This document shows positions 1 to 48,523 of a stretch of 50,858 nt of DNA, one piece after another. The number at the start of each line of letters is the position of its first letter. Position 1 is the first letter of the stretch. The notes under the pieces were generated by a model, which was not told the origin of the DNA, did no database searches, and saw nothing but the letters and a program-made list of their open reading frames with translations. The translations under genes were made by a program, and so were the position numbers. This DNA comes from a virus. Where the stretch lies: the IMG/VR virus record IMGVR_UViG_3300020215_000011; one strand, given 5' to 3'.

Positions 1-127
1 AGTCACACTCGCGCGTCCCCGGCGGGACCAGGACGCGGGCCAGCCGGACCAGCGCGGCCCCCAGCCGGAGGTCGTGGGCGCAGTCCGCGCACAGCGTCGC
101 CTCCGGGGAGCGATACACCGGGACCAG
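1..127. repeat. Terminal direct repeat, left copy (identical to 50732..50858)
   Basis: Read directly: bases 1-127 equal the last 127 bases; unit length 50731 bp. Confidence 0.95.
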
Positions 128-154
128 CGGGCGCCCTTCGGGCGGGGCGCTCAT
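1..154 (-). CDS. Junction-spanning small zinc-ribbon protein (58 aa), 5' part; last 23 nt lie at 50709..50731
   Basis: ATG at 154 overlaps the stop of the 151..297 gene (ATGA). MSAPPEGRPLVPVYRSPEATLCADCAHDLRLGAALVRLARVLVPPGTRECDFCAVRIA closes only if the ends are joined. Two CxxC pairs. Confidence 0.6.
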   Translation of the reverse strand, partial: MSAPPEGRPLVPVYRSPEATLCADCAHDLRLGAALVRLARVLVPPGTRECD

Positions 155-2633: not shown

Positions 2634-2809
2634 CGCACCCTCTCTTTCGTCAATCCCTCGTACTCGGCGGCATCGGACGGACTCAGCGACACCCGCAGGC
2701 GCAGCGTCTGATCCCGCAGCGACGCCTTTTTCTTTTCCAGCGCGTGCTGCGTCGCGCTGATCTGCTTCAGCGCCAGTTCCAGGGCGTGCAGGCGGGCTCC
2801 GGGAGTCAT
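2630..2809 (-). CDS. Small coiled-coil protein (59 aa)
   Basis: ATG 2809 overlaps the upstream stop (ATGA) and sits 1 nt after a GC hairpin (2811-2825). Confidence 0.55.
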   Translation of the reverse strand: MTPGARLHALELALKQISATQHALEKKKASLRDQTLRLRVSLSPSDAAEYEGLTKERVR

Positions 2810-3135
2810 GGGCGCCCTGCGGGCGAGTCGCCTTCGGCCAGCGCGAGAGCTCGTTCGGCGTCGTCGTATTCCCGACACGTGCAGTCCGGCCGGTCGCGGA
2901 AGTGCGCGAGCCGCATCGCACGCAGCGCTGCGACCAGCGCGTCGTGCGCGTTTACCGCGCGGACGATCAGGTCGGCGTTGGCCTCCATGACCGGCAGCCG
3001 CGACAGGACGCATTCATGCGCGACGACAGCCACCAGCGAGCCATCACCGCCTTTAACCGTGGCTTGGTCGTTACGGTCGGGGTTGCCGACCTGCCAAGGT
3101 CGCGCCGTCGCCTCTCCGCCCGTCTCGGGCGCCAT
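2806..3135 (-). CDS. Ead/Ea22-like phage protein (paralog 1)
   Basis: ..ARPWQV..GSLVAVV..MEANADLIVRAVNAHDAL.. pattern typical of Ead/Ea22-like proteins; GGGGAG 6 nt before ATG 3135. Confidence 0.6.
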   Translation of the reverse strand: MAPETGGEATARPWQVGNPDRNDQATVKGGDGSLVAVVAHECVLSRLPVMEANADLIVRAVNAHDALVAALRAMRLAHFRDRPDCTCREYDDAERALALAEGDSPAGRP

Positions 3136-3218
3136 CACACGCTCCCCAGCGCGAGCAGGAGGTAGAGCGCCCCCGTCACCAGCAGGGACAGGACGGCGGA
3201 GAGGAGAACGTCACGCAT
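3135..3218 (-). CDS. Possible 27-aa hydrophobic peptide
   Basis: Hand-translated MRDVLLSAVLSLLVTGALYLLLALGSV; hairpin 3225-3241 6 nt upstream; stop overlaps the next ATG (TGATG). Confidence 0.3.
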   Translation of the reverse strand: MRDVLLSAVLSLLVTGALYLLLALGSV

Positions 3219-3486
3219 CAGGGGCACTCCCTTCGGGAGTGGCTGCCGCTGGTGCCGACACGGCGCGTCGAGGAACGAACATCTTGTGTAGCGCGACGGC
3301 GCACTTACAGCACTGGGCGTGCGCGGCCTTGTACGGGTGGTCTTCGCAGTAGCAGTGCTCGCAAGGCGAAAACACGCGCGGCCTCCAGTCTTGCGGCGGC
3401 GGGAAAAACGACCCGCGCGCGCACTCAGCGCAGCGACAGCGGCAATTCGTGGGGTGCGGACAGCCGATGCAGTTGCACACGCCCAT
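3211..3486 (-). CDS. Cys-rich protein (91 aa, 19 Cys)
   Basis: Internal ATG of ORF 3211..3753; MGVCNCIGCPHPTNCRCRCAEC...; TGATG coupling. Confidence 0.6.
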   Translation of the reverse strand: MGVCNCIGCPHPTNCRCRCAECARGSFFPPPQDWRPRVFSPCEHCYCEDHPYKAAHAQCCKCAVALHKMFVPRRAVSAPAAATPEGSAPDA

Positions 3487-3683
3487 CACGCGCCACCGTC
3501 CTTTCGTCTCGACGTCACGGGTGCCGCGACGTAGGCGCCCTCCGGGCGTTGCGGCTGCGCCGCGCTCGGCGTGGAGCCGGCCCGAGTGGCCGACTCCATC
3601 GCGGCAAGCGCGTCTTCCAGTTCGCGGATGCGATCCACCGCGCACCGGTCCACGATGGTGTTGCCGCACTTGCAGCGGATCAC
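3486..3683 (-). CDS. Small protein (65 aa) with CKC..C motif
   Basis: GTG start in a GTGA overlap with the 3680..4129 stop. Confidence 0.5.
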   Translation of the reverse strand: MIRCKCGNTIVDRCAVDRIRELEDALAAMESATRAGSTPSAAQPQRPEGAYVAAPVTSRRKDGGA

Positions 3684-4343: not shown

Positions 4344-4747
4344 CAGGCGCCCTTCGGGCGTTGCGGCTTCGCCGCGCTTCGGTAGCCGGCGTATTCCGCG
4401 ACCAGCGCGGCCTCGCACTCGTCGGTGCAGGCCGACCGGCCGCCGTACGTGTATTCGCCGCAGTTGAGACACTTCCCCGTCGGCTCTGGCGCGCCCTCGG
4501 GCCACGGCTCGTACTCGCCGGTGCCGCGAGACGGGAACTGCGCGACGGTCGGATCGACTACGCGCCCGTCTGGCGCCACGAGCCACCAATGCGCGCGGCG
4601 TCCCCACATCGGGCAGTGGTAGTGCCCGCGCACCCGGCGTAGTTCGGGAAACTCCTCCGCCATCGTCGCGGTGATTGCCGCGCACAGGCCGATGGGGTCC
4701 GCCGGCACCTCGGCGCGAATCCAGTCCTCGTACCGCTCGTCACTCAT
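4343..4747 (-). CDS. Hypothetical protein (134 aa), Cys-rich C-terminus
   Basis: Internal ATG with ATGA overlap; ..CLNCGEYTYGGRSACTDEC.. Confidence 0.6.
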   Translation of the reverse strand: MSDERYEDWIRAEVPADPIGLCAAITATMAEEFPELRRVRGHYHCPMWGRRAHWWLVAPDGRVVDPTVAQFPSRGTGEYEPWPEGAPEPTGKCLNCGEYTYGGRSACTDECEAALVAEYAGYRSAAKPQRPKGA

Positions 4748-4941
4748 CGCGGACTCCACCGGACCCGCTGCCCGGCCAAGCGCGTCCGCGGCTCCGTCAG
4801 GGGATAGGCACGTGGCGCCATCGCGTCCTGCCGGCGGCACCCGCCACACCGCGCAGCGGTGCCCACGTAGCCGGTCTCCGCATCCGGGACCATCTCCGTG
4901 TCCTCGAGGGCGTCCGGGGCGCCGCAGCGGTCGCACCTCAT
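4744..4941 (-). CDS. Zinc-ribbon small protein (65 aa)
   Basis: MRCDRCG...CGGC; ATGA overlaps at both ends; 17-mer hairpin 2 nt upstream. Confidence 0.55.
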   Translation of the reverse strand: MRCDRCGAPDALEDTEMVPDAETGYVGTAARCGGCRRQDAMAPRAYPLTEPRTRLAGQRVRWSPR

Positions 4942-5294
4942 CGGGCGCCCTCGACGGGCGTTGCGCCTTCGGCGCGCTCCTGCTCCCACTCGCGGGTGAC
5001 GAGCGCCTTATGGGCGCGGATCAGTAGCAGGTGCTCGCGCTCGGTCTCAGCCTTCGCCCGCTCAAGCCGCTTCTCGGTGGCACGCAGAAACGCCTGCCAC
5101 GCGCTCTCGGGGGTGAAGTGGCACTCCTGCGGGTCGTGATGCGTGCGGCAGTAGAAGGCCAAGCCGCTCCGCTCCGTCGTCACCCGCTTGTCCGTCTGCT
5201 TGATGACGCGCGCCCGCTCCAACGTCGCGCGGCCGTCGAAGACGTCCACCGCGTAGATCCACACCGCCGCTTCTCCGCCCGCCTCGGGCGCCAT
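4938..5294 (-). CDS. Hypothetical protein (118 aa)
   Basis: Starts MAPEAGGEA (hairpin just 3' of the ATG); ends ..PVEGAR inside a 17-mer hairpin. Confidence 0.6.
   Translation of the reverse strand: MAPEAGGEAAVWIYAVDVFDGRATLERARVIKQTDKRVTTERSGLAFYCRTHHDPQECHFTPESAWQAFLRATEKRLERAKAETEREHLLLIRAHKALVTREWEQERAEGATPVEGAR
4944..4960 (-). promoter_or_regulatory. Start-associated hairpin, identical 17-mer GGCGCCCTCGACGGGCG
   Basis: 2 nt upstream (minus strand) of ATG 4941. Confidence 0.7.
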
Positions 5295-5482: not shown

Positions 5483-5827
5483 CGGGCGCCCTCGACGGGC
5501 GGCGAAGCGCAGCCGTCCACGTGGGCCAGCAGGGCCTTTGCGCGCTCGGCCCAATACTCGTGGGCGAGCGTCGCGCCGTCGTCGTACGAGCACGTCGCCG
5601 CCTGCGCCATCAGGTCGTGGATGAACGCCCGCATCGCGTCGTGGTGGTTCACCGCGCGAACGATGAACTCGGCGTCCGCCGCCGGGACGACTTGCAGATG
5701 GCTTCTGCGGGTGACGCTGGCTGAGCGGCAGATCCGCGCCGCGCAGCAGGATCGCGCCGCCCTGACTACAGGGACTCAGACTCCACGGTCGCGGCGTCGC
5801 TTCACCCGCCGCGTCTCGCGGCGCCAT
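5479..5827 (-). pseudogene. Ead/Ea22-like paralog 2 with an apparent +1 frameshift near 5690-5720
   Basis: The frame from ATG 5827 gives MAPRDAAGEATPRPWSLSPCSQGGAILLRGADLPLSQ. The +1 frame gives ..HLQVVPAADAEFIVRAVNHHDAMRAF...PPVEGAR, ending in an ATGA overlap with the next gene. Both halves align with paralog 1. Confidence 0.55.
5485..5501 (-). promoter_or_regulatory. Start-associated hairpin, identical 17-mer
   Basis: 2 nt upstream of ATG 5482. Confidence 0.7.
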
Positions 5828-6048
5828 CACTGCGCCTCCCGGAGCGCCGCGACGCCCGCACACCGCGGACACCGTCCCCCGTACCCGTGCCCTGCCGGGA
5901 GACGGTGACACCGGAGGCAGAGGCGGGTGTTCTCGCTACTCTGTCGAACTACACTCAGCGGGGGGTCCGCGCGCTCCGTAACCCCGCGAAATGATGCACA
6001 CGGCTGAGTAATCCTCTTCTCGGATCGGACGTCGCTAGTGCCCGTCAT
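5827..6048 (-). CDS. Zinc-ribbon small protein (73 aa)
   Basis: ORF track; CLRC...CPRC; stop overlaps the next ATG (TGATG); start uncertain. Confidence 0.5.
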   Translation of the reverse strand: MTGTSDVRSEKRITQPCASFRGVTERADPPLSVVRQSSENTRLCLRCHRLPAGHGYGGRCPRCAGVAALREAQ

Positions 6049-7329: not shown

Positions 7330-7478
7330 GCCCGCCCCTTCCGCGCATCGCGCTCGCGCCGCCACACCTCGAGCGGGTCCGCCGTCCCGCGCGCAGCGCG
7401 CCCCTTCGGCCGCTGAAGCCCCGCCAGCGTCACCACGGAGCAACTGGCGAGGACGAACAGCAGGAGGAGGTACTTCAT
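7326..7478 (-). CDS. Small lipoprotein (50 aa)
   Basis: MKYLLLLFVLASC lipobox; hairpin 7480-7494 1 nt upstream. Confidence 0.55.
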   Translation of the reverse strand: MKYLLLLFVLASCSVVTLAGLQRPKGRAARGTADPLEVWRRERDARKGRA

Positions 7479-7651
7479 GGGCGCCCTTCGGGCGAGGCGG
7501 CGCGCTCGTGCCGCACCGTCGCGTCCCACGCCTCGTTGTAGGAGTCGTGCGGCCCGCCTTCGTCGCCGCAGGAGCACGCCCACCAGTAGTGCTGCCGACA
7601 TCCAGGCTTCGGCTCGCGAATCTCGGTGGCGTGCGCGTTGTCCGACGTCAT
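7475..7651 (-). CDS. Hypothetical protein (58 aa)
   Basis: ATGA overlaps at both ends. Confidence 0.5.
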   Translation of the reverse strand: MTSDNAHATEIREPKPGCRQHYWWACSCGDEGGPHDSYNEAWDATVRHERAASPEGRP

Positions 7652-7824
7652 CGCACGCGCCGGTAGTCGAGTAACGCCACCACGGGCACCGTGCCGTACG
7701 GCACCCACTCCTGAATCATCCGCTCCAGCTTGACGAGCGTCGCCGTCGCGCCATCGACCTTAACGACACGCATGAGGCCGACAGACGTTTCAAACCTGTC
7801 CCCGACACGCACGGTGGCGTTCAC
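7648..7824 (-). CDS. Hypothetical protein (58 aa)
   Basis: GTG start in a GTGA overlap. Confidence 0.5.
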   Translation of the reverse strand: MNATVRVGDRFETSVGLMRVVKVDGATATLVKLERMIQEWVPYGTVPVVALLDYRRVR

Positions 7825-8069
7825 GCCCGGCTCCACGTCTCGAAGATCAGCCGGGCGGCGTCTTCGGCCGAGATCCAGCCCCACGCGGCCGGCGCGTTAA
7901 TCAGACGACGCGGCCGACCAATCGGAGTGTCGAAGGCCGTCTCATGAGCCCTCGGGGCGCAGCGAAGGTCTGCAACCTGTACTTGAAAGTCGCCGCGCTC
8001 CGCCCGATCACCCGTCAGCCACAGATACTCCGGCTTGACCTCGATCGACACGTACGGAGTCCAGTTCAT
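7821..8069 (-). CDS. Hypothetical protein (82 aa)
   Basis: ORF track; GGAGGG upstream of the ATG. Confidence 0.6.
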   Translation of the reverse strand: MNWTPYVSIEVKPEYLWLTGDRAERGDFQVQVADLRCAPRAHETAFDTPIGRPRRLINAPAAWGWISAEDAARLIFETWSRA

Positions 8070-8072
8070 GTC

Positions 8073-8342
8073 TCACGCCCTCCGTCGGGACGTCTGAGGT
8101 TTTCCGTCGCGCAGCGACGCCCGCATGAGGGGCTTCCGCACGTCGAGCCGCTTCCAGGCGTCGTACGAGTGAATGCGGAACACATTGGAGACGTGGGACG
8201 GGGCGCCGGCCTCGCCGCTCGGCACAAGCACGCCTGCGGGCGAGGTCGTCACCGCACCGGCCGATTCCGGCCCGCTTCTTCGGGGCGACGTCCCGTGAGG
8301 TCCGTATGACGATGACGCACGCGTATGACGTCGTGTGCTCAT
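8073..8342 (-). CDS. Hypothetical protein (up to 89 aa; true start may be internal)
   Basis: The first ~15 codons have low GC3; coding-like GC3 only from about 8250 downward. Confidence 0.4.
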   Translation of the reverse strand: MSTRRHTRASSSYGPHGTSPRRSGPESAGAVTTSPAGVLVPSGEAGAPSHVSNVFRIHSYDAWKRLDVRKPLMRASLRDGKPQTSRRRA

Positions 8343-8345
8343 GGA

Positions 8346-8588
8346 TTACAGCCGCCCCATTCCCGTAATCCCGACGTGCGCTGGCGCAGCATCCTGTGCT
8401 TCCACGATGCTGAGGGCGTACATGGTGAGTTTCCGAGCGAACCGCGAGGGTTCTTCCGACCGCCGCCGCGCCGCCGCGACGATCCGGCGCCAGTCCGACG
8501 GCGTGTACCGGATCGAGTGCGGCTCCATCGACTCCATCGGCGGCAGCGCCTCGGCACGCGCGAGCGGCTTACGGTCAGCGTTCGCCAT
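8346..8588 (-). CDS. Ribbon-helix-helix-like DNA-binding protein (80 aa)
   Basis: ..IRYTPSDWRRIVAAARRRSEEPSRFARKLTMYAL.. resembles RHH/MobC-type folds; TGATG coupling. Confidence 0.5.
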   Translation of the reverse strand: MANADRKPLARAEALPPMESMEPHSIRYTPSDWRRIVAAARRRSEEPSRFARKLTMYALSIVEAQDAAPAHVGITGMGRL

Positions 8589-8824
8589 CACGCCGCTCGC
8601 GTCCGTGAACGCCGACGTTCCTCGCGCAGCAGCGCCCGCTCAGCCGCGATCCACGTCGGTGCCGCGACGAGCAGCCCGCGCAACACACGCGAGAAGTGGC
8701 CGACGTCCTTCTTGGCCTTGCGCGCAAGCGTGTTCTGCGACCAGCCGAGGGCACGCGCGCGGGCCACCAGCTCCAAGCGTTTTGCGTCGATCTCAGCGGG
8801 TGTTCGGGGTACTGTTGCGGTCAT
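8588..8824 (-). CDS. Cro-like HTH protein, first gene of the leftward arc (78 aa)
   Basis: ..LGWSQNTLARKAKKDVGHFSRVLRG.. HTH-like; ATG lies 9 nt after a -10-like hexamer with no SD (near-leaderless). Confidence 0.6.
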   Translation of the reverse strand: MTATVPRTPAEIDAKRLELVARARALGWSQNTLARKAKKDVGHFSRVLRGLLVAAPTWIAAERALLREERRRSRTRAA

Positions 8825-8833
8825 CGTTGGGGG

Positions 8834-8862
8834 AGTATCTACGAATCTTCCGTAGGTGTCAA
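8834..8862 (-). promoter_or_regulatory. Candidate leftward early promoter (TTGACA-17 nt-GATACT)
   Basis: Minus strand reads TTGACA (8862-8857), a 17-nt spacer, then GATACT (8839-8834), 9 nt before ATG 8824. Confidence 0.45.
8839..8855. promoter_or_regulatory. Operator-like palindrome O1 (CTACGAATCTTCCGTAG)
   Basis: Fills the promoter spacer; core ACGAA-N3-TCCGT is one mismatch from O2. Confidence 0.5.
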
Positions 8863-8874
8863 CGAAAAATTCGT
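8862..8874. promoter_or_regulatory. Operator-like perfect palindrome O2 (ACGAAAAATTCGT)
   Basis: 13-bp perfect palindrome abutting the -35 and overlapping the GTG 8873 start of the plus-strand gene. Confidence 0.5.
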
Positions 8875-9352
8875 GGGAGAGCGTCTGTCCCGAAAATCGC
8901 GGGAGTACACGGCCTCGGTCCCTTGGGCCGCCGCAGTCGCTCTCGCCGGGAGCGAGGAGACGCTGAAGGCTGGCGTCCCTTACTCGACGTGGAAGGGCTG
9001 GGAGAACGATGACCGGGTGCCGGCCTACGTCATCCTACCGATCGTTCTCCAGAGGTACGTCCCGCAGCACGGCACCGATAGTGGGCAATCATCTACCCAT
9101 TCGGCTCAGAAGTTGCCTGACTCCGCCCCGACCGATCCAGCCTACGCCGAATGGGAGCGAAACATGGCCGATGTGGCGTACCAACACATCTGGAGGCAGG
9201 TGTCGCTGATCTATCGGTTAAGACAAACCGACCATCTGAGATGGGATCTGCTGCAAGGGATGCTCGCGAACCTGACCGCCGGTCTTGACAAGACAATCGA
9301 CGACAATCGTAAAGTAGAAACTCCGGGGAAATCTGGCACGACCGGGGATTAA
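8873..9352 (+). CDS. Putative CI-like repressor (159 aa)
   Basis: Divergent from the cro-like gene; ..LKAGVPYSTWKGWENDDRVPAYVILPIVL.. HTH-like; GTG is the first start codon after the switch region, with no SD; lower GC3 than the rest of the genome. Confidence 0.5.
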   Translation: MGERLSRKSREYTASVPWAAAVALAGSEETLKAGVPYSTWKGWENDDRVPAYVILPIVLQRYVPQHGTDSGQSSTHSAQKLPDSAPTDPAYAEWERNMADVAYQHIWRQVSLIYRLRQTDHLRWDLLQGMLANLTAGLDKTIDDNRKVETPGKSGTTGD

Positions 9353-9387
9353 CTGGCTGGGCGTTCATTCACCGGGGAGGGGGCGAC

Positions 9388-9639
9388 ATGATGACGCTGA
9401 CCATCCTTCTCTGCACCGTCGTTCTGCTATCAGGATGTGCCGCCGCGCTGACGCCCGCCCAGCAGCGCGGCCACCTCTTTGCCGAGGCCTGTACGAAAGA
9501 GACCGGCTACGCGATGAACTACGCGGTTTACCCCGATGGCAGCGTCCGAACCCTCGAGGGCAGTAACGCAGGCGCCCACGATCGCTGGATGCGCTGCATG
9601 AACCGGAGCGGGTACAACTTCCCGGGGGTCGGGCGATGA
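9388..9639 (+). CDS. Lipoprotein (83 aa)
   Basis: MMTLTILLCTVVLLSGC lipobox; GGGGAGGGGG upstream. Confidence 0.7.
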   Translation: MMTLTILLCTVVLLSGCAAALTPAQQRGHLFAEACTKETGYAMNYAVYPDGSVRTLEGSNAGAHDRWMRCMNRSGYNFPGVGR

Positions 9640-9791
9640 AGATCAACGCAGACGTCGGGACGGCGCTGTTCTGGGGACTAGTGTTCGCCCTGATCGTGTT
9701 CCTGTCGGGCTGTGCGTCACGCGACATGGCGACACACAAGTGTGCCGATGCGCCCCGGGATTCCGCCTGGGCGCGGTCGAACTGCCGCTAG
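9636..9791 (+). CDS. Small lipoprotein (51 aa)
   Basis: Hand-translated MKINADVGTALFWGLVFALIVFLSGCASRD...; ATGA overlap with the previous gene. Confidence 0.55.
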   Translation: MKINADVGTALFWGLVFALIVFLSGCASRDMATHKCADAPRDSAWARSNCR

Positions 9792-10003
9792 GGCTGCTGG
9801 CAGCGGGCGGGGTCCTCGCCCCGCATGACGCTCAGCGTTAAGCAGTTCCGCACGTAGGCGTCCACGACGCCGATCACCCAGCTCTGGAACGACGCCGCGT
9901 CATTCGCCCGGGGGGCGAGGGTCAGCGGGGGCTTGACGCTTGAGTTCCCGGCGCAGGAGGTCAACCACAGCGCGCTGACGAGCAGCGCGCACGTCGTCGT
10001 CAC
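9788..10003 (-). CDS. o-spanin-like outer-membrane lipoprotein (71 aa), overlapped architecture
   Basis: VTTTCALLVSALWLTSC lipobox; starts inside the i-spanin gene in another frame and ends beyond it. Confidence 0.6.
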   Translation of the reverse strand: MTTTCALLVSALWLTSCAGNSSVKPPLTLAPRANDAASFQSWVIGVVDAYVRNCLTLSVMRGEDPARCQQP

Positions 10004-16457: not shown

Positions 16458-17194
16458 TACCGGGCCAGCCCCCCGCCCCAGCCGCTGCCCTGCTGGTAGC
16501 TCGCGCCGCCGCCGTAGTTGAAGCCCGTCATCCCCGTCGTCCCGCGGTTCGCGGCGAAGATGTTCGGCTGCGCCCGCCGCTCCGCCGACTGCATCCCCGC
16601 GAACTGCGTGAACCCGGGCTGGAGACCGCCGAGGGCGAGCCGGTTCTGGAACGCCTGCTGCCGAAGCTGCTCCCGGAAGCCGGCGAGGTTGGACGCGAAC
16701 TCCTGCCCGGCGCTCCCGAGATCGAGCGCCGACTTCGCGCGGGCCGTCTCCAGCCCCTCGCCGAACTCGCCGCGCTGACGGATGAGTTCACTGCCGATCG
16801 GGGAGTCCGTCACGTTCATCCCGCGCCCCGCCGCCATCTGCTGCCCGAAGCGCATCAGGTCGGCCTCGCCGCGCTTCAGAGCGGTGCCGTAGATCTGGTC
16901 GAGGTACGCCTGCTGATCGGGCGTCAGGACCGGGGCCGTTCCCTTGAGCCGGTTCAGGATGTTGGTGCTCGCGAGTTCTTCGATCTCGCGCTGCGTCTGC
17001 GCCAGCGGGGACTTCGCGAAGTCCTCGCGCTCCTTCGCCGCGCCCTGGATCTCCGACTTCTGGAGCTGCGCGAGCTCGAGCTGGAGCTTTTCCAGTTCCT
17101 TCTGCGTCTCCGTGGCCGCCGGCAGGGTGATCTGCTGCTGCGTCGTGCCACGGTCACGTCGGGTCGAGGACGAGCCACCGAAATTGAAACTCAT
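16457..17194 (-). CDS. Virion/ejection protein (245 aa)
   Basis: Internal ATG with ATGA overlap on the GNAT stop; the long R-rich extension is rejected. Confidence 0.6.
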   Translation of the reverse strand: MSFNFGGSSSTRRDRGTTQQQITLPAATETQKELEKLQLELAQLQKSEIQGAAKEREDFAKSPLAQTQREIEELASTNILNRLKGTAPVLTPDQQAYLDQIYGTALKRGEADLMRFGQQMAAGRGMNVTDSPIGSELIRQRGEFGEGLETARAKSALDLGSAGQEFASNLAGFREQLRQQAFQNRLALGGLQPGFTQFAGMQSAERRAQPNIFAANRGTTGMTGFNYGGGASYQQGSGWGGGLAR

Positions 17195-17574
17195 GTCAGC
17201 CTCTTGGCGAAGGCGTGGCCCGTGCCCTGCACCTGCACGGCGTAGCGATCGAGAATGTGCGCGGCGTCCGACTTCGTGCCGGTGAACGCCATCCAGGCCT
17301 GCACGCCGTACTCGCGCAGGACCGTCTCCATGTGTTGCAGCAGCCGGATGCCGTACCCCTGATGCTGGAACCGCGGATCGATGGCCGCCTCGGTGATGAC
17401 GGCGTAGGGCGCCCCGAGAAGGGCCTGGACGACGCCGATGATTTCGCCCTTGCGCTCGCACACGAGCGTGACCGGCCCCCACTTGTCGTACGCGATGCCT
17501 TCGACGGCGAGCCCGCAGTCGTGGATCAGTTCGTTCAACCGCGGGAAGTCCTCGGGCTTCGCCGGACGGATCAC
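17191..17574 (-). CDS. GNAT-family N-acetyltransferase (127 aa)
   Basis: ..IDPRFQHQGYGIRLLQHME.. acetyl-CoA-binding Q/RxxGxG/A motif and typical size. Confidence 0.75.
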   Translation of the reverse strand: MIRPAKPEDFPRLNELIHDCGLAVEGIAYDKWGPVTLVCERKGEIIGVVQALLGAPYAVITEAAIDPRFQHQGYGIRLLQHMETVLREYGVQAWMAFTGTKSDAAHILDRYAVQVQGTGHAFAKRLT

Positions 17575-39415: not shown

Positions 39416-39562
39416 CTAGAATCGGAGCCTGAAGCGTCGCCAGCGATACAGCGACATGAGCCGTCGCCAGAACCCTGCATGGAGGAGCGGGGAGCGGAGG
39501 CAGGTTTCGCAGTGCCAGCCGTTGCCGCAGCCCGGGGAGATGTAGCAGTCGCAGGCGCTCAT
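39416..39562 (-). CDS. Cys-rich small protein with basic/hydrophobic tail (48 aa)
   Basis: Hand-translated MSACDCYISPGCGNGWHCETCLRSPLLHAGFWRRLMSLYRWRRFRLRF; hairpin 39565-39580 2 nt upstream. Confidence 0.5.
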   Translation of the reverse strand: MSACDCYISPGCGNGWHCETCLRSPLLHAGFWRRLMSLYRWRRFRLRF

Positions 39563-39587
39563 CTGGCGCCCTGACGGGCGGGGTGGT

Positions 39588-40571
39588 TCATCGTCCGCGC
39601 TCCAGTAGGTCCAAGAGGCGGGCTGAGGCGTTCGAGGGGCCGAGGTAGCGGGCGCGGTAGATGCCTAAGGCGTCGGGATCTATGGCGAATGGCTCGGGGT
39701 TGGTGACGAGCGGGCGGATGACGCCGGGCCAGTAGCCAAAGGTATACGGCATCCCGGAGTAGCACTCGTGCGTCGTCCTGTGGCCGTCCAGATGCGGCTG
39801 GGGCAGGGTCACGGAATACTGAGGCACGCCAGCGTGCGCGAGCTCCATCGCGGCGCCTGACTGGAAGTGGACGGCGACGGTCGCTGACCGGATGAGCCGG
39901 AGAGACATCGGTGGGTAGAGTTCCGTGTCCTCGTACACGGCATCAGCGAGCTGTCTCACATACGCAGGGTCCGCGTGCTTACGCCTCGTCTTGATGACGA
40001 GGCGTAACTTCTCCGTGTCACACCAGCGCCGCAATCTCGTCAGGAGCCGGCGATAGCCCGCGTAGCGGTACACGAAGCGTCGCCAGCCGCCGACTCGGAG
40101 CTTGCACGAGAACAGCAGGAGCATGGGTGAGGACTCACTGGGCAGCGGGCGGGCGGCGGCCCAGGCGTCGAGCTGCGTTGAGCCGAGCGTCGGGGCCCAC
40201 CAGTCAGACCGATGGCGGTCGGCCAGTCGGTATTGATAATCCGACACGTAGCATTGCAGCATCCCGGGGATGACGGGCGCATTCGCCTGCTCCCAGCTGT
40301 AATCCAAGCTCACGAGGCGGGCTGAGGACCAGGCGCTCACATCGTGGGTGTGCAACGTGGGGCCGATGAAGGCATCGGCCGGGGACGGGTCGGTGATAAC
40401 CGTCGTCGACCACCAGCGGTGCGAGACGTCAGCGTAACGGGCCTGCTCCCCCGGCTTGCGGTCGCGGGTCCAGTACAACAGGACCGTGTGCTTGCGGCGT
40501 AACGCTTCCTCGATGACGGGGCCGATGACCTTGAAGTAGCCGATCCGTGCCGCCGGGAAGGCGAGGATCAC
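39588..40571 (-). CDS. Glycosyltransferase-like (GT-B/TagF-like) protein (327 aa)
   Basis: Weak pattern resemblance only; GTG start overlaps the upstream TAG (TAGTG). Confidence 0.4.
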   Translation of the reverse strand: MILAFPAARIGYFKVIGPVIEEALRRKHTVLLYWTRDRKPGEQARYADVSHRWWSTTVITDPSPADAFIGPTLHTHDVSAWSSARLVSLDYSWEQANAPVIPGMLQCYVSDYQYRLADRHRSDWWAPTLGSTQLDAWAAARPLPSESSPMLLLFSCKLRVGGWRRFVYRYAGYRRLLTRLRRWCDTEKLRLVIKTRRKHADPAYVRQLADAVYEDTELYPPMSLRLIRSATVAVHFQSGAAMELAHAGVPQYSVTLPQPHLDGHRTTHECYSGMPYTFGYWPGVIRPLVTNPEPFAIDPDALGIYRARYLGPSNASARLLDLLERGR

Positions 40572-43565: not shown

Positions 43566-43858
43566 GGCCTGATGTGCGGCTTACGCGCCCCGAGCAGTTG
43601 GGGCAGATGCTTCCCGCACGCCGGATTCACGAGCTCGTCGCCGCAGACAGAGCAGCGCGCTTCGCCCGTCTCGGGCGCCTTCGGGCCTGCGGCGTGCAGC
43701 GCGGCCGCGAACGGTCGCAGCGCGTCGCGGACTTCGTTGCAGTGGAAGTTGTGGCGCTCGTCCCCGGGACAGGCGTAGTCGCCGCAATGCGCGTAGCACG
43801 AGTCCGGGTCGTCAGGATCACCGAGCAGGTCGATTAGCTTCCGCCGCGCCGTCTCCAT
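43511..43858 (-). CDS. Cys/His-rich protein (115 aa)
   Basis: Internal ATG; multiple C..C/H pairs; contains an internal hairpin copy at 43663-43679. Confidence 0.55.
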   Translation of the reverse strand: METARRKLIDLLGDPDDPDSCYAHCGDYACPGDERHNFHCNEVRDALRPFAAALHAAGPKAPETGEARCSVCGDELVNPACGKHLPQLLGARKPHIRPWTDEDDDGRGGRPEGPP

Positions 43859-43860: not shown

Positions 43861-44601
43861 TCAGTCCCCTTCGCGCCGACGTGTCCAGCGGTAGGCGTTG
43901 TTCATCGCGTCCTCGTCGATCATTCCGGCATACAGGTGGTTCGCGCGCGACGGTTCGACGTACGTCCTCACCCACTTCCCGCCTTGCAGCGGGTGTTGCA
44001 GGTGCTCCACGTACCGCCGCGCGATCGGCTCGGTCAGCGCGACGGCGCTCAACACGGTCGCGCCAGATTTAGCGAGGCTCCACACGAGCCAGATGGGGAT
44101 CTCCCGCTCCAGTACGGCGCCCTCGCTGGCGCCCGAGGCGGGCGTTGCGCCTCCGGCGCGAAGGCGGGCGCGCTCGTCGAAGGCATTCGCGGCGGCGACG
44201 ATGAACTCGGCGGTTGCGCGGCCCGCTACGAGCGCGACGGGGCCACTCTCACCCAGCGGCGGATAGATGCCGTACTCGTCGTCCAGTTCGCCCTCGTACG
44301 GCGCGTCGGGGAAGTGGTGCTCGACGTACCTCCACCGCTTCGGGTGCCCGATCGTCTCGCCCTTGCCGTGAGGCCCGGACACCTCCCACGGTCGCGCCGG
44401 CACCTCGCCCGCCTCGGACGCCATCGGTGGCGGTGGGGCGACGAGGGCGGCGGCCGTCAGGCGTCGCGCTTCGACTTCCCGCCGGGCCTTTTCTTGGATC
44501 GCCTCGTGGATGGTGTAGCCCTCGCGCTGGATATCGTCGTAGGTCACATCCGCGCGCTGCCACGCCAGCAGGGCGGCTCTCAGTCGCTCCTCGGGGGTCA
44601 T
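43861..44601 (-). CDS. Ead/Ea22-like domain protein (246 aa), paralog 3
   Basis: ..ARPWEV..GPVALVAGRATAEFIVAAANAFDE..; 17-mer hairpin 5 nt upstream. Confidence 0.55.
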   Translation of the reverse strand: MTPEERLRAALLAWQRADVTYDDIQREGYTIHEAIQEKARREVEARRLTAAALVAPPPPMASEAGEVPARPWEVSGPHGKGETIGHPKRWRYVEHHFPDAPYEGELDDEYGIYPPLGESGPVALVAGRATAEFIVAAANAFDERARLRAGGATPASGASEGAVLEREIPIWLVWSLAKSGATVLSAVALTEPIARRYVEHLQHPLQGGKWVRTYVEPSRANHLYAGMIDEDAMNNAYRWTRRREGD

Positions 44602-44810
44602 CGTCGGGCGCCCTCGACGGGCGGGGTGTCGTGCCTCAGCACGCACCGCTGGCCGACCTCGGCGTGCGCTCGCGCGGCTCGGAAATCGAACACGTTGAGG
44701 GACGCCAGCACGAGGTCAAAGTCCTTCGCCGCCTGCCGCAGCGCGCTTCGCAGCGTCTCGGCGCACGCCCCGCACAGGCTTCCGCTCCCTAGATCACACC
44801 AGCTACACAT
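44598..44810 (-). CDS. Zinc-ribbon small protein (70 aa)
   Basis: MCSWCD..CGAC; ends ..PPVEGARR in a 17-mer hairpin. Confidence 0.55.
   Translation of the reverse strand: MCSWCDLGSGSLCGACAETLRSALRQAAKDFDLVLASLNVFDFRAARAHAEVGQRCVLRHDTPPVEGARR
44607..44623 (-). promoter_or_regulatory. Start-associated hairpin, identical 17-mer
   Basis: 5 nt upstream of ATG 44601. Confidence 0.7.
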
Positions 44811-45318
44811 GGGGAGTCTCCTTGGCGCCCTCGACGGGCGTACCCGCAGCCTTCGGGAGCAGTTCGGCCAGCGCGTAGCGGAGCAGGCACACCGCGTCCA
44901 CCTCGTTGTCGTCGTACTCGCGCTTCCCGAGCCATCCTCGAGCTATGGCAGACTCGGTCATAGCGAACTTGTCGCCGCGGCCTGAGCCCGTCGCGAACTT
45001 CTTGAGCGTGGCCGAATGCACAGCGGCGTGCTCGATCTCCCACTCAGCGCAAAACTCCTGCACGCGGGTCGCGAACCCCGCCGCCACCTCGGTCGCGGCA
45101 CCGCCGCGATGGTGCGTCTGCTCGTACACGACGAGATTGAACGAACGGCCCAACGACAGACGGTTCACCTCGTCCAGCCAGCGGTTGAAGCGCAGGTAGC
45201 GCATCCCCGGCGACTCGCCACGCTTCACGTCGAACACCTGCACACCCGACGTCATCACCGACCCGACGCGAGTTGCCCAGCCCGTCTTCGTCCCGAGATC
45301 CAACGCCAGTACGTTCAC
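44803..45318 (-). CDS. ruvC: RuvC-like Holliday junction resolvase (171 aa)
   Basis: MNVLALDLGTKTGWA.., ..VVYEQ.., ..DDNEVDAVCLL.. acidic catalytic pattern. Confidence 0.75.
   Translation of the reverse strand: MNVLALDLGTKTGWATRVGSVMTSGVQVFDVKRGESPGMRYLRFNRWLDEVNRLSLGRSFNLVVYEQTHHRGGAATEVAAGFATRVQEFCAEWEIEHAAVHSATLKKFATGSGRGDKFAMTESAIARGWLGKREYDDNEVDAVCLLRYALAELLPKAAGTPVEGAKETPHV
44824..44840 (-). promoter_or_regulatory. Start-associated hairpin, identical 17-mer
   Basis: 13 nt upstream of ATG 44810. Confidence 0.7.
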
Positions 45319-45725
45319 CGCGCGCTCCTTTCGTTCCCTTCGGACACCGCGTCGAGGGCCGCCAGCGCGGCGACCAATTCGTCGGCGCCGACCGCTCGCG
45401 TCTCTCCGTCCGCGACCTTGCGCGCCAGCCCCGCGTACGTCGCATAGACCTGCGCCGCTTCCGCGACCGCCAAGAGCGCCTTGTACGTGTTCCGGGCGGT
45501 GGCGATGAACTCGGCGTTGGCTTTAGCCTCGGCCATTGGGATCGGCGGGGTGCCGGGTGTGCAGACCGCGCTACCAGCCGTGCGCCCGTACGTCTTGGCG
45601 ATCATCGCCAAGCCCTTCACCGATATGGCGACGTGATGCTGCCCGCTACCGCTCAGGTTTCCTGCGCGCCACTCGCCCGCCGTCGCGGCCGCTTCCAGGG
45701 CTTTCAGCCGGTCAAGGGCACTCAC
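45315..45725 (-). CDS. Ead/Ea22-like protein (136 aa), paralog 4
   Basis: ..GEWRAG.. ..EAKANAEFIATARNTYKALL.. Confidence 0.55.
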   Translation of the reverse strand: MSALDRLKALEAAATAGEWRAGNLSGSGQHHVAISVKGLAMIAKTYGRTAGSAVCTPGTPPIPMAEAKANAEFIATARNTYKALLAVAEAAQVYATYAGLARKVADGETRAVGADELVAALAALDAVSEGNERSAR

Positions 45726-46090
45726 GCGGGCGTCCCTTCGGGACGAGGGTCGCGGCGAACCAGCAGGTAGCCGCCGTAGTAGCCGTTGCTGTCGTTGCGA
45801 TAGTCGATCGTCGCCGTCCCGTGCTCGGTCGTGATCGCCAGCCCGTAGTACGCGCGCGTCGTGTGTTCGTCGGGATCACCGAGCTCCGGCATCTCCGCTT
45901 CCTGAACGTTCGTCACCGTGCCGCACAGCGCCGTCTCGTTGAGCACCTGCTCAACCCATGTGTTCGAGCATCAGTCCCCTTCGGGGATCAACTGCACCGC
46001 GCCCTCATCGGTCAGCAGCGTGATGCCGTCCGCGTCGATCGTGACTTCACGAATCGTCATGCCCACGAGCGTGTTGAGATCGCTACGCAT
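45722..46090 (-). CDS. 122-codon gene interrupted by an in-frame TGA (45971-45973) at codon 40
   Basis: ATG 46090 (GAGGGAG upstream) ...LIPEGD-TGA-CSNTWVEQVLNETALCG...NDSNGYYGGYLLV.. all in one frame; ends in a GTGA overlap. Confidence 0.5.
45938..45955 (-). other. Perfect 7-bp hairpin GUUGAGC-AGGU-GCUCAAC, 15 nt 3' of the in-frame UGA
   Basis: Read directly; the loop contains the GTG 45946 restart candidate. Confidence 0.8.
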
Positions 46091-46513: not shown

Positions 46514-47239
46514 TCACGGGCGTCGCTCCGCGACGGGCTCGCCCGCGAACAGGACTTCTTGGCGAAGTCTTTTGACCGCGATCTCGCAGTACCTCGGCTC
46601 GATCTCGATCCCGATGGCGCGCCGGCCGAGGTTCTTGGCGGCGTGCAGGGTCGTGCCCGACCCCGAGAAGGGCTCTAGGATCAGATCGCCGGGACCGCTT
46701 TCGCGGATGATCCGCTCGATGAGCGCAATCGGCTTTTCGGCGGCGTGGCCGTTGGGGCGGGCACTCGCCCACTGAGCGCGCCAGATGTCTGGAAGGCCAC
46801 GGTTCGGAATCGCGAAGCCGTCATGCGCGAACAGCGCGACGAGTTCATACGATGGCCGCAGCCCCTGCACGCCGCCGGGGCCGATCCACTCCTTGTCCCA
46901 CACGAGCAGAGATTCGATCGGCCACAGCGCCTCGTAGGCGGCTCTGGCGAGGATCGGGAAGCTGCGCCACGAGTTGAAGATCCACGCCGCGCCTTGCCGT
47001 GATTGCGTGAGACGGTACGCCTCACGAATCCATGAGGCGTACCACCGCGCCCCGTTCATCAGGTCGCCCCACCCGCCCGCCTTGCCCTCCTGCGCGGTCG
47101 ATGCGAGGCCGAAGGAGTACGGCGGGTCCGTGACGACCAGATCGACGCTCGGCAGTAACGGCATGATGTCGAGCGCGTCCCCGCAGTAGAGCGTGATCCC
47201 CGGCTCCTCGTGAAACAGGTAGTCGCGGAGGGACTTCAT
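46514..47239 (-). CDS. Beta-class DNA methyltransferase, probably N6-adenine (241 aa)
   Basis: DPPY (..LVVTDPPYSF..) precedes FxGxG (..EPFSGSGTT..). Confidence 0.8.
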   Translation of the reverse strand: MKSLRDYLFHEEPGITLYCGDALDIMPLLPSVDLVVTDPPYSFGLASTAQEGKAGGWGDLMNGARWYASWIREAYRLTQSRQGAAWIFNSWRSFPILARAAYEALWPIESLLVWDKEWIGPGGVQGLRPSYELVALFAHDGFAIPNRGLPDIWRAQWASARPNGHAAEKPIALIERIIRESGPGDLILEPFSGSGTTLHAAKNLGRRAIGIEIEPRYCEIAVKRLRQEVLFAGEPVAERRP

Positions 47240-47664
47240 GCGAACTGCGTCCGCTTGAAGCTGCCCGCCGCCGTCAGCGAGTGCGCCTCTTTCGCCAGCA
47301 GGCTCGGCGTGCGGGCGCCGCCGGCTCCGCGCCGCGAGCGCATCTCGATCCCGTCCTTCCGCATCCGCGAGACCTGGTGATCGAGCGTCCCCGGCCGCAC
47401 CTTGAAGTCCCGGCAGATCGCCGCCACCGCGTCGCCGGCATTCCACCGCTGCGCCAGCAGCGCCGTCCGCTCCTCGGTCCACACGACGCGCCGCCCGATC
47501 TTCGCCACCGGCCCGAGCGGCACCGCCGCCGCAGGCGGCGCCCAGGAAGGCGTGAGGACCGCCGTGACGCTCTTGCCGTGGATGCAACTGACCACCCGGA
47601 CCTGCTGGTAGCCGTCCGAGTCCGTCGCTTCGCGGATGATTCCGCAGGCCATGACGTCGTGCAT
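47236..47664 (-). CDS. GcrA-like DNA-binding domain protein (142 aa)
   Basis: ..VVWTEERTALLAQRWNAGDAVAAICRDF.. resembles the GcrA N-terminus (WTDERVELLKKLWSEG..). Confidence 0.45.
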   Translation of the reverse strand: MHDVMACGIIREATDSDGYQQVRVVSCIHGKSVTAVLTPSWAPPAAAVPLGPVAKIGRRVVWTEERTALLAQRWNAGDAVAAICRDFKVRPGTLDHQVSRMRKDGIEMRSRRGAGGARTPSLLAKEAHSLTAAGSFKRTQFA

Positions 47665-48071
47665 CAGGCGCCCTCGACGGGCGAAGAAACGGCGGCGTGT
47701 TCACGCTGTGCGTCGATCAGGCGCTTGGCTTCGTCGAGCGCGGCTTTCGTGCCGACCAGCCAGCCGCCCGCCTCGCGGTACACCATGCAGGCGTGGCCCG
47801 CCGGCATATCCGCGAGCACGATGCCGTCGCCGCGCCAGAACACGGCGTTGCCGAGTCTGAGCAGCGTCGGCTTCGCGTCCTCGCCGTCGTCGTCCTCGTC
47901 GAAGCCGGCCGCCTTAACCAGCGCCGAGTAGATCGCATTCCCGAGCTTCGTGCGCTCCTGCTCGGCTTCCGCGCGCGCCTCGGGACCGAGCCACGAGAAC
48001 CACTGCGTGACAATGTCGAGCGCCGTGTCGTGCAGCGAGTCCATCGCCGCGCGCGCCATCGCGTCGTTCAT
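47664..48071 (-). CDS. Hypothetical protein (135 aa)
   Basis: Internal ATG with GGAGGGCAGGGGA upstream. Confidence 0.55.
   Translation of the reverse strand: MNDAMARAAMDSLHDTALDIVTQWFSWLGPEARAEAEQERTKLGNAIYSALVKAAGFDEDDDGEDAKPTLLRLGNAVFWRGDGIVLADMPAGHACMVYREAGGWLVGTKAALDEAKRLIDAQREHAAVSSPVEGA
47667..47683 (-). promoter_or_regulatory. Start-associated hairpin, identical 17-mer
   Basis: 2 nt upstream of ATG 47664. Confidence 0.7.
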
Positions 48072-48127
48072 TCCCCTGCCCTCCGTCCGTTCGTCGTTCA
48101 CCACCACGCCCCGCGCGCAGCGCGCCC

Positions 48128-48523
48128 TCACAAGGCCACCGCCCGCGCAGCAATCTGCCGCATGTACTCCCGGAACAACTCCCGGTGCCCCTGGATCTCG
48201 AGCGCGCACCGCCCGCACGTCTCCCCGTTCCGCCGCCCCGCCGCCCACTCGTGCGGACACGTCGCCCGCCGCCGCAGCGCCGGAATCTGGCACCCGGAGC
48301 ACAGCCGCTTGCCGCGGTCCTCGAGACAGGGCGTGTCGTCCTCGAATGCGCGGACGGACGAGTCGTGCGAGCCGCAGGCGTAGCAGTGCTGCACGGGCGT
48401 CCACGCGCCGCGGCTGCGCTCGTCGCGGATCTTGATGCACGCCAGGCACCGCTCCGGGTCCGGGTGTGTCTCGCTCTCGGGCTCGAGCGCAGGCGCTTCC
48501 GTGTCGCGTCGAATGCGGCTCAT
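48128..48523 (-). CDS. Cys-rich protein (131 aa)
   Basis: ATGA overlap; CLAC, CYAC, CSGC, CGRC pairs. Confidence 0.55.
   Translation of the reverse strand: MSRIRRDTEAPALEPESETHPDPERCLACIKIRDERSRGAWTPVQHCYACGSHDSSVRAFEDDTPCLEDRGKRLCSGCQIPALRRRATCPHEWAAGRRNGETCGRCALEIQGHRELFREYMRQIAARAVAL

Follow-up and report, generated by a model that had tools for sequence, protein, structure and literature searches.

The window analysed here is the whole of a 50,858-nucleotide (nt) stretch of viral DNA, IMG/VR record IMGVR_UViG_3300020215_000011, and within it we find a family of short hairpins placed where one early open reading frame (ORF) ends and the next begins. The family is real, conserved and specific to the early arc of the genome. 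The element is most likely a lineage-specific 'junction cassette' in the early operons of this uncultivated temperate phage. It may well be that the hairpin covers the ribosome binding site (RBS) in the mRNA and makes translation of the following gene dependent on ribosomes that have read the gene upstream, with the cassette serving secondarily as a portable point of recombination.

An exact direct repeat of 127 bp is present at the two ends of the window (1-127 = 50,732-50,858), corresponding to an assembly overlap, and an identical ENA assembly crosses the window ends without a break. The genome is therefore circular and complete, with a length of 50,731 bp, and what we term the early arc is uninterrupted. 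Followed in the direction of transcription, it extends from w10,000 to 1 and on from 50,731 to ~38,600, where the prefix w denotes a window coordinate. The late (structural) arc spans 28.6 kb. The genome has a GC content of ~68%, and all the confidently coding ORFs lie on the minus strand. The same genome, identical letter for letter, is found in two ENA assemblies and one Logan fragment, and these other assemblies thus provide no micro-variation. The gene starts and stops used below are the independent calls of a public pipeline on these identical assemblies, mapped onto the window; only three of the called ORFs, all small, are on the plus strand (8873-9352, 9388-9639 and 9636-9791). Recognizable genes encode an SU10-type portal (the largest real ORF, with 795 amino acids), an ERF recombinase, a tyrosine integrase, a DNA methylase, a GT4 glycosyltransferase, an HNH endonuclease and a RuvC-like resolvase. 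The phage is temperate, as it carries an integrase. A scan of both strands against Rfam gave no matches at the gathering score, and no tRNA was found by a tRNA scan.

A specific hairpin family in the early arc

A preliminary description of this DNA had reported about 20 GC-rich hairpins at early junctions, six of them identical. All six copies of the 17-mer GGCGCCCTCGACGGGCG are present, none is found in 100 shuffled sequences, and every other hairpin listed lies where it had been placed. The pattern CGCCC-N3-5-GGGCG occurs 19 times, compared with 2.15 ± 1.31 in shuffles. Altogether there are 27 perfectly paired hairpins at 22 sites, exclusively in the early arc, with stems of 5-7 bp. The consensus on the transcribed strand is CGCCC-G(N1-3)A-GGGCG-CC-(0-4 nt)-ATG.

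Strict membership of the family was defined by a stem of at least 5 bp, a closing C-G pair, a G..A loop and a 3' flank of CC. There are 16 such hairpins on the sense strand of the early arc, where shuffles give 0.26 ± 0.49, and none in the 28.6 kb of the late arc on either strand (0.41 expected in the sense and 0.44 in the antisense orientation), just as the absence of copies from the structural arc had been noted earlier. Three matches to the loose pattern in the late arc (9905, 21635 and 26534) have different loops and are at chance level. In a census of all perfect hairpins with a G..A loop, the sense strand has 32 where shuffles give 13.1 ± 3.4, and 26 of these 32 lie in the early arc; the antisense strand has 12. 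Hairpins in general, without regard to the loop, are not enriched (early arc 113 versus 93.8 ± 8.9, late arc 89 versus 109 ± 11). It is therefore only the specific family that counts, and the suggestion of an excess holds for this family and not for GC hairpins as a class.

The main type (n = 17) has the stem CGCCC/GGGCG, or one of the co-varied stems CGUCCC, CACUCCC, UCCCC and CGUCGC, closing a loop of 3-5 nt with the sequence GAA, GCA, GGA, GUCA or GUCGA. Partner hairpins (n = 5) of the form GCGNC-GNA-GNCGC lie 0-2 nt upstream of a main or an inverted-type hairpin. The inverted type (n = 5) is CGCCCG-AGA/AGG-CGGGCG, with CCU as the loop of one copy. Its reverse complement is the 17-mer save for two loop bases, and its stems co-vary both between paralogues and between orthologues. 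Copies in the opposite orientation had been described just 3' of ATG codons, and this is where they are found. Their structure required correction, the stems being of 6-7 bp with AGA or AGG loops and beginning at +4 of ATGG, which for three of them is part of a UGAUGG start.

We made a structure-true, N-padded alignment of 34 copies from this genome and the relative described below. The closing C-G pair and the G..A of the loop are invariant in all of them. The next four pairs outward vary only by two-sided changes, and beyond five pairs the flanking nucleotides are mostly unpaired. The percentage of paired positions in this alignment is circular, since the copies had been chosen for their pairing, and orthologous junctions were used instead. 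As RNA, the hairpins have predicted stabilities of -7 to -10 kcal/mol; with DNA parameters, single hairpins are at -4.6 to -6.8 kcal/mol.

The hairpins lie on stop/start junctions

Ten main hairpins are followed, after 3-15 nt, by a called start (w7478, 5482, 4941, 4343, 2809, 47664, 45725, 44810, 44601 and 39562), and nine of these ten starts overlap the upstream gene's stop codon. Similarly, ten main hairpins are located 1-8 nt before a called upstream stop, which overlaps the next start as ATGA, TGATG or GTGA. Eleven starts had previously been listed as following a hairpin. Ten of them are independently called, and the remaining one, at 3218, is called at the orthologous site in the relative. 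At w39580 there are 24 nt between the end of the upstream gene and the 3' end of the hairpin, and here a mini-ORF (MNHPARQGAR*) begins on the stop codon of the 327-amino-acid gene, bridges the hairpin and ends on the next start. In a further class of five hairpins the order is reversed, an overlapped start being followed 4-17 nt later by the hairpin (w5290, w3131, w144 and the two of the HNH gene tandem). Three more copies lie in a gap without gene calls. This post-start class had been overlooked in the preliminary description, as had the antisense copies and the behavior as a portable cassette and mosaic joint that are discussed below.

Family hairpins are present at 12 of the 33 overlap junctions of the early arc and at none of 24 in the late arc (Fisher p = 6e-4). 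Stop/start overlap is found for 12 of 14 hairpin-linked starts and 21 of 37 other early genes (p = 0.10), and ATG is the start codon for 12 of the 14, compared with ~62% elsewhere.

The hairpin nucleotides are read as ..PVEGA(R)*, ..SPEGRP*, ..RPKGA* or ..ARRGR.., or are non-coding. Since all three frames are used or the copy lies outside an ORF, we have rejected a protein motif. The proposal that this is a nucleic-acid element is upheld, both by the use of three frames and by the compensatory nature of the stem changes. Genes that open with an inverted-type hairpin (2806-3135, 4938-5294 and ~5827, and 12751-13116 in the relative) share the N-terminus MA(P/S)..GEAT(A/P)RPW, within which codons 2-7, corresponding to the hairpin, co-vary. 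One of them, w3135-2806, is phrog_1273, and together they look like a small paralogous family.

The 3' end of each upstream cistron is where these hairpins are located, and they might protect or process mRNA 3' ends, like REP elements or the RNase III-site hairpins of T7, or act as weak terminators. The tandem at w49916-49889 would suit such a role, as it directly follows a stop and has a terminator-like hairpin and T-run ~270 nt downstream. However, most copies are part of the upstream ORF, with only 1-8 nt left to its stop, and would there be melted by ribosomes, and RNase III requires a longer stem than one of 5 bp. U-tracts are missing from all copies, and no terminator-like site is present in 1-10.7 kb. 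The post-start and inverted copies are not accounted for, and at w39580 the position of the hairpin tracks the start codon. We consider a function at mRNA ends quite improbable. As an intrinsic terminator the element was rejected outright, since U-tracts are lacking and no family hairpin is among the terminator-like sites.

Pairing is retained in a related genome

To find relatives, we compared the integrase with genome, metagenome and viral collections, and scanned the viral and genome collections with two hairpin patterns as well. These searches gave one true relative, Ga0196964_10000391 (IMGVR_UViG_3300020202_000466), a 28.5-kb sequence from a metagenome with an integrase that is 91% identical. 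The remaining matches of the collection scans are isolated chance matches, relatives identified through ERF have no such hairpins, and no close relative was found among deposited phages by megablast of 4-9 kb or by tblastn of the portal. The relation of the two genomes is mosaic, with 72-87% identity in patches. Downstream of its integrase the relative has eight strict copies where 0.07 are expected; its late part lacks them on the sense strand. Hairpins lie 4-6 nt before its called starts 13348, 13801, 14312 and 16089, and post-start copies lie at +4 of 12751 and +6 of 16642.

Orthologous junctions were picked by their flanks and not by their pairing. At w5501 the stem CGCCC/GGGCG with the loop GUCGA is replaced in the relative by CGUCC/GGACG with the same loop, which is a compensatory change. 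At w3241 CACUCCC/GGGAGUG becomes CGCUCCC/GGGAGCG, again compensatory, with an A-U pair changed to G-C. The hairpin CGCCC-GCA-GGGCG at w2825 corresponds to CGUCGC-GGA-GCGACG at equal distance from ATGA, and at w4360 the loop GAA corresponds to GUCGA. The inverted hairpin at w5290, CGCCCG-AGG-CGGGCG, has as its counterpart CGUCGCG-AGA-CGCGACG, and the encoded peptide differs. Pairing and position are kept while the sequence changes, and this is our strongest evidence for a folded single strand as the selected feature. Covariation in a related genome, put forward earlier as a way of checking the element, is therefore seen at orthologous junctions.

The relative contains a further repeated junction motif, CGGCGC-AGG-GCGCCG-GAA.., at 16850-16864 and 17229-17243, each 22 nt before a called GTGA start.

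The compensatory changes bear on a different proposal, that the inverted repeats are operators in double-stranded DNA at which a repressor silences the early genes. There are many copies in one orientation at gene junctions, the phage is temperate, and the switch region of the relative contains a gene for an HTH_3 protein. The stoperators of cluster A mycobacteriophages, reportedly described by Brown et al. in 1997 as fixed 13-bp asymmetric duplex sites in both arms that are bound by the repressor, are similar in that a temperate phage carries them in many copies, all oriented, where genes meet. Stoperators are also mentioned in PMC3203893. They differ from the hairpins in that these have variable internal length and compensatory pairing, and are confined to the early arc. 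A DNA reader would not require paired changes in the stem, the spacing of the half-sites varies with loops of 3, 4 or 5 nt, the loop rule is strand-specific, and the late arc has no copies. We therefore regard duplex operators as extremely unlikely, and have rejected them on the basis of the variable spacing and compensatory changes.

The hairpin and the ribosome binding site

Canonical Shine-Dalgarno (SD) sequences (GGAGG, AAGGAG) are found at normal spacing in many genes of this genome. In the pre-start class of hairpins the sole purine tract in the SD window is formed by the loop and 3' arm (GAGG, GAAGG or GGAGG), located 4-9 nt from the ATG. The earlier claim that the hairpins hold the only SD-like purines therefore stands with canonical spacing, save at w44810, which has its own AAGGAG after the hairpin. 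Predicted duplexes between these purines and the anti-SD have stabilities of -5.0 to -6.4 kcal/mol, which is weaker than the hairpin. From partition functions calculated between -45 and +30, the mean probability that nucleotides at -17 to -5 are unpaired is 0.29 for hairpin-linked starts versus 0.42-0.43 for all other starts (p = 0.003).

Hairpins that occlude the RBS, and thereby tie a downstream cistron to translation of the upstream one, are known for f1 VII/IX (with -4 spacing), MS2 and rpmI-rplT, and ATGA and TGATG pairs couple by termination-reinitiation (PMC12548453, PMC6728339). The geometry observed here matches the RNA-unfolding model and the termination-reinitiation model of coupling, for which -1/-4 overlaps are documented cases, as are RBS-occluding hairpins. 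In the order of the mRNA the cassette comprises the 5' arm CGCCC, the G..A loop, the 3' arm GGGCG, CC, 0-4 nt and an ATG that overlaps the upstream stop. The hairpin is predicted to be at least as stable as the SD:anti-SD duplex, and free 30S subunits should therefore load poorly. A ribosome finishing the upstream ORF would have to melt the hairpin and, terminating 1-8 nt past it, would be left with the SD-like purines positioned at its anti-SD. That ribosome, or the subunit left behind, could then start the next gene, so that downstream expression would be tied to upstream expression. Copies at +4 to +17 of the next ORF (the inverted type, w144 and the HNH tandem) may gate or damp initiation in a similar manner. 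Because the cassette recurs, it could also act as a portable unit and a preferred joint in the exchange of early genes. We infer an action as RNA rather than as single-stranded DNA (ssDNA), a block to uncoupled initiation, and reinitiation.

A number of observations weigh against coupling by occlusion of the RBS. There are 21 early and 24 late overlap junctions without a hairpin, and coupling in itself can therefore do without one. About five copies lie in the interior of ORFs. Accessibility differs only modestly, and in 75-nt contexts the minimum-energy fold often omits the hairpin. Published library data indicate that structure directly after the upstream stop lowers coupling (PMC12548453), and so post-start copies may damp initiation rather than couple. 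Damping would suit the HNH nuclease gene, which bears two post-start hairpins. There is no G.U pair in any copy, and there are no imperfect or near-miss members of the family. The copies are far more uniform than would be needed for structure and an SD, with the 17-mer present six times here and three times in the relative and with a conserved CC flank. Hairpins with a GNA loop and a CC(C) flank are also found on the antisense strand, where the early arc has seven (0.33 expected) and the late arc has none. Finally, the core matches an extraordinarily stable DNA mini-hairpin, GCGNAGC / GCGNNAGC, and CCGAAGG is the loop of RSF1010 ssiA (PMC13037366). The proposal of SD sequestration with coupling, first made in the preliminary description, thus gains from the lower accessibility and from the mini-ORF that bridges w39580, and is tempered by the junctions that lack a hairpin and by the minimum-energy folds.

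Three alternatives are live, and partly compatible with coupling by occlusion of the RBS. These are a trans-acting reader, an origin by recombination or as a mobile element, and a role as ssDNA.

A possible trans-acting reader

The excess uniformity implies an additional constraint, which could be a trans-acting factor or copying, and for this reason we have kept a trans-acting factor open. It is possible, though not probable, that the hairpin is an operator on early mRNA for an RNA-binding protein or nuclease of the phage or host, with one factor switching the whole early set; this would be compatible with coupling. A repressor of the RegA or MS2-coat type, a Com-type activator and a RegB-type endonuclease are models for it. 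Identical 17-mers in both genomes, the invariant closing C-G pair, the G..A loop and the CC flank would all be explained in this way. The loops fall into discrete classes that could each be closed by a sheared G.A pair, like GNRA or boxB loops, and in both genomes the elements are confined to early operons. Against this, stems and loop lengths vary in a manner that a strict sequence reader would not tolerate, and scans of ~30 early proteins with Pfam and PHROG gave no RNA-binding or RNase candidate, most of these proteins being ORFans.

In a more specific form of the idea, the invariant C-(G..A)-G hairpin would be a 'junction code' for a dedicated factor, such as an RNA-binding early ORFan or an RNA polymerase (RNAP)-associated reader of non-template mini-hairpins, like ops/RfaH. 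We find this rather doubtful. If true, the factor would gate translation or elongation at ~20 early junctions and constitute a phage-wide post-transcriptional regulon, and such a code could also explain SAS-type motifs (start-associated sequences, discussed below) in other phages.

Antisense copies and a possible role as single-stranded DNA

The antisense copies, the absence of wobble pairs and the mini-hairpin core lead us to keep a DNA-level reading open. In such a reading the active element would be an ssDNA mini-hairpin, C-GNA-G or C-GNNA-G, in the non-template strand of the transcription bubble or in the lagging-strand template. It could signal pausing or loading, as with ops/RfaH, serve for priming or the exclusion of SSB, as at ssi sites, or be a hairpin promoter, as in N4, and any such role appears improbable. 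In its favor, all stems are perfectly Watson-Crick paired, and both strands of the early arc have an excess of GNA hairpins (16 sense and 7 antisense) that are lacking in the late arc. The inverted type, too, is nearly a reverse copy of the 17-mer. However, anchoring to start codons at SD spacing and the bias to ATG are hard to explain at the level of DNA. Some 20 priming or loading sites in 22 kb, with none in the other 28 kb, would be unlike a replication signal, and the antisense copies never have the CGCCC stem and are mostly inside genes. One antisense copy (309-323) adjoins the GGGAGG SD of gene w297, and another (8105-8119) is followed by plus-strand cccgcATGA.

DNA mini-hairpins in the promoters of the N4 virion RNAP, the G4 origin and RSF1010 ssiA act as ssDNA, with few copies per replicon (PMC13037366, PMC4496689). 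The N4 promoter comprises a hairpin with a GNA loop on the template strand, used by the virion RNAP of the phage (PMC4496689). The present hairpins resemble these in having a G-N(1-2)-A loop closed by C-G, with the potential for a sheared G.A pair, and in stems of 5-7 bp. They differ in that the main family is on the coding, non-template strand, is anchored to starts and is present in ~20 copies, and there is no gene large enough to encode an RNAP, let alone the giant virion enzyme of N4. An N4-like promoter was therefore rejected.

Portability and recombination

Some differences between the two genomes lie at hairpins. A 44-nt block at w49926-49883 comprises the last two codons of a gene, GUGA, both hairpins and CCCGCU. 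The relative has this block with 100% identity, between flanks that are unrelated on both sides. Of 22 ends of homology blocks, 7 are within 25 nt of a hairpin, where 1.26 would be expected at random positions (P = 4e-4). The order of the genes w5652 and w5482 is swapped in the relative, with breakpoints at hairpins, and at w4360 the upstream gene and the loop differ and the sequence is conserved from the 3' arm onward.

It might therefore be argued that the cassette is repeated mainly because it is copied, either as a patch of homology for early-gene swaps, like PeSLs (see below) and the boundary sequences of lambdoid phages, or as a selfish ssDNA hairpin tolerated only at protein termini. 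Copies do lie in the last or first codons of ORFs, also in inverted orientation, and genes for ERF, a RuvC-like resolvase and an HNH nuclease are present in the phage. Yet a homology patch needs no hairpin, and we see compensatory pairing and even wholly different stems at equal distance from the ATG. That distance is tight although the bases of the linker differ. Block ends are not clearly commoner at hairpin starts (3 of 7) than at gene starts without a hairpin (4 of 18), and there are no copies at 43 junctions of the late arc. We recognized no transposase and found no clean empty site. Copying as the principal explanation is thus rather unlikely, and because a homology patch would not need compensatory pairing we take the recombination behavior to be a by-product of reuse of the cassette.

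REP/BIME elements (REPIN) are extragenic imperfect palindromes of ~35 nt with a GTAG head, often arranged as inverted pairs, with a RAYT transposase. The hairpins here are of 13-17 nt, lie mostly inside the ends of ORFs and are paired in tandem. There is no Y1 transposase among the proteins scanned, which were those of a subset of the ORFs.

Relation to other junction elements

The closest described phenomenon is that of the start-associated sequences (SAS) of cluster K mycobacteriophages, and the family here is not a member of it. A resemblance in concept, with a different sequence, had been noted in the preliminary description, and this is borne out. SAS and extended SAS (ESAS) occur in 11-19 copies per genome, in the non-structural part only and in one orientation, 3-7 nt before starts with a strong bias to ATG (Pope et al. 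2011, PMC3203893; PMC12699233). They contain SD-like purines, are conserved beyond what pairs with 16S rRNA, have a second upstream element in about half of cases and precede genes of different families (PMC3203893, PMC12699233). Their function was unknown as of 2025 (PMC12699233). The hairpins are like them in copy number, restriction to the non-structural region, distance from the start, orientation, ATG bias and an optional upstream element. The 13-bp SAS consensus GGGATAGGAGCCC has no match in the window at up to two mismatches. SAS are non-palindromic, the pairing of ESAS is unsupported, and genes with SAS mostly follow gaps of >50 bp (PMC3203893, PMC12699233), whereas the present family is a true hairpin with compensatory changes, located on stop/start overlaps inside the upstream ORF in 12 of 14 cases, and includes post-start and inverted copies.

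The RBS-occluding hairpins of f1 VII/IX, MS2 coat-lysis and rpmI-rplT are similar in covering the downstream RBS and in being read through by the upstream ORF, which stops at -1 or -4 spacing. Those known hairpins are individual and idiosyncratic. In contrast, a single part of 13-17 nt with an invariant core is reused here at ~22 junctions in two mosaic genomes. The principle of coupling by RBS-occluding structure is known gene pair by gene pair, and a standard repeated part is unusual.

The PeSLs (promoter-early stem-loops) of T4-type phages lie between genes and combine a sigma70 early promoter with a terminator (Arbiol et al. 2010, PMC2839356; Comeau et al. 2014, PMC4122927). As with the hairpins here, they are repeated stem-loop cassettes among small, variable, non-essential early genes. 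Differences between relatives map to PeSLs, which undergo cassette-like exchange, and the hairpins may behave likewise. Unlike PeSLs, the hairpins lie inside the ends of ORFs, are tied to the start codon, and have neither a promoter nor a U-tract. Promoter-like sites number zero and two in the two halves of the early arc, and none is at a hairpin.

Coupling thus appears to have been standardized in this lineage, in the form of a part of 13-17 nt that combines hairpin, SD and stop/start, serves about one third of the overlap junctions in the early arc and moves with genes from one genome to another. Should this be confirmed, the part would provide a natural, compact and portable 'coupling cassette' for synthetic operons. 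The part is also a tractable hairpin-based analogue for the unexplained SAS of cluster K, and an example of a regulatory repeat that doubles as a seam of mosaic evolution. For annotation, the hairpins help to place the starts of ORFan early genes.

Catalogue of sites and neighboring features

Table 1. Hairpins of the family and antisense GNA-loop hairpins, with window coordinates and position relative to genes.
Feature	Position	Strand	Context
Main CGCCC-GAA-GGGCG	7482-7494	-	3 nt before called start w7478 (ATGA), 4 nt before upstream stop
Main 17-mer CGCCC-GUCGA-GGGCG-CC	5485-5501	-	4 nt before called start w5482 (ATGA)
Tandem GCGCC-GAA-GGCGC (4963-4975), AA, 17-mer (4944-4960)	4944-4975	-	4 nt before called start w4941 (ATGA)
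Tandem GCGGC-GAA-GCCGC (4363-4375), AA, CGCCC-GAA-GGGCG (4348-4360)	4348-4375	-	4 nt before called start w4343 (TGATG)
Tandem GCGGC-GCA-GCCGC, AA, CGCCC-GGA-GGGCG	3536-3563	-	47 nt before stop of uncalled ORF; 34-nt block 94% identical to 4345-4378
Main variant CACUCCC-GAA-GGGAGUG	3225-3241	-	6 nt before ATG w3218 (27-amino-acid ORF, called in relative)
Main CGCCC-GCA-GGGCG	2813-2825	-	3 nt before called start w2809 (ATGA)
Main CGCCC-GAA-GGGCG, post-start	132-144	-	Begins 10 nt after called start w154 (ATGA)
Variant CGUCCC-GAA-GGGACG	50479-50493	-	Within gene w50712-50443, 33 nt before stop
44-nt cassette GAAUCC-GUGA, GGCGC-GCA-GCGCC (49904-49916), 17-mer (49887-49903), CGCU	49883-49926	-	Hairpins in codons 2-11 of HNH gene w49920-49549
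Main 17-mer	47667-47683	-	4 nt before called start w47664 (TGATG)
Variant CGUCGC-GGA-GCGACG	46521-46535	-	4 nt before stop of DNA methylase gene, then cccGUGA
Variant UCCCC-GAA-GGGGA	45975-45987	-	1 nt before stop of w46090-45971, then UGAUG
Variant CGUCCC-GAA-GGGACG	45731-45745	-	5 nt before called start w45725 (GUGA)
Main 17-mer	44824-44840	-	15 nt before called start w44810; separate AAGGAG in between
Main 17-mer	44607-44623	-	7 nt before called start w44601 (ATGA)
Tandem GCGCC-GGA-GGCGC, AA, CGCCCG-CCU-CGGGCG	44130-44159	-	Within gene w44601-43861
Inverted CGCCCG-AGA-CGGGCG	43663-43677	-	Within gene w43858-43511
10-codon mini-ORF (AUGA ... AUGA) across CGCCC-GUCA-GGGCG (39567-39580)	39559-39591	-	Links stop of w40571-39588 to w39562
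Inverted CGCCCG-AGG-CGGGCG	5276-5290	-	From +4 of called start w5294 (UGAUGG)
Inverted CGCCCG-AGA-CGGGCG	3117-3131	-	From +4 of called start w3135 (UGAUGG)
Inverted, co-varied stem CGCCGCG-AGA-CGCGGCG	5807-5823	-	After UGAUGG, uncalled stretch
Antisense GNA-loop hairpins	309-323, 4847-4861, 7388-7400, 8105-8119, 47447-47462, 47524-47540, 48112-48124	plus	

The region 48520-49920 contains the HNH gene (49549-49920) and a terminator-like hairpin with a T-run at 49607-49622 (minus strand). Further terminator-like sites lie at 49025-49070, and at 48924-48952 there is a 12-bp palindromic tandem, GTGACACGTCAC, repeated 2.4 times. This looks like an operon boundary or regulatory region.

The region 7,800-10,000 has a lower GC content (0.65) and a weak coding signal, and holds all three plus-strand ORFs called by the pipeline. 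A sigma70-like promoter, TTGACA-17-GATACT, lies on the minus strand at 8834-8862. This region is probably the lysogeny switch, since the counterpart region of the relative encodes the HTH_3 protein on the opposite strand.

Two stretches, 3135-3680 and 5652-6035, have no pipeline calls yet carry family hairpins (3563/3548 and 3241 in the first, 5823 in the second). They contain plausible small ORFs overlapped by TGATG, for example w3486-3211 / w3218-3135, and are likely to be under-annotated early genes. Lastly, a 38-nt repeat with 66-79% identity is found at 2940-2977, 5637-5674, 40340-40377, 44175-44212 and 45479-45516, and at two places in the relative. It is probably the conserved core of paralogous small early genes.

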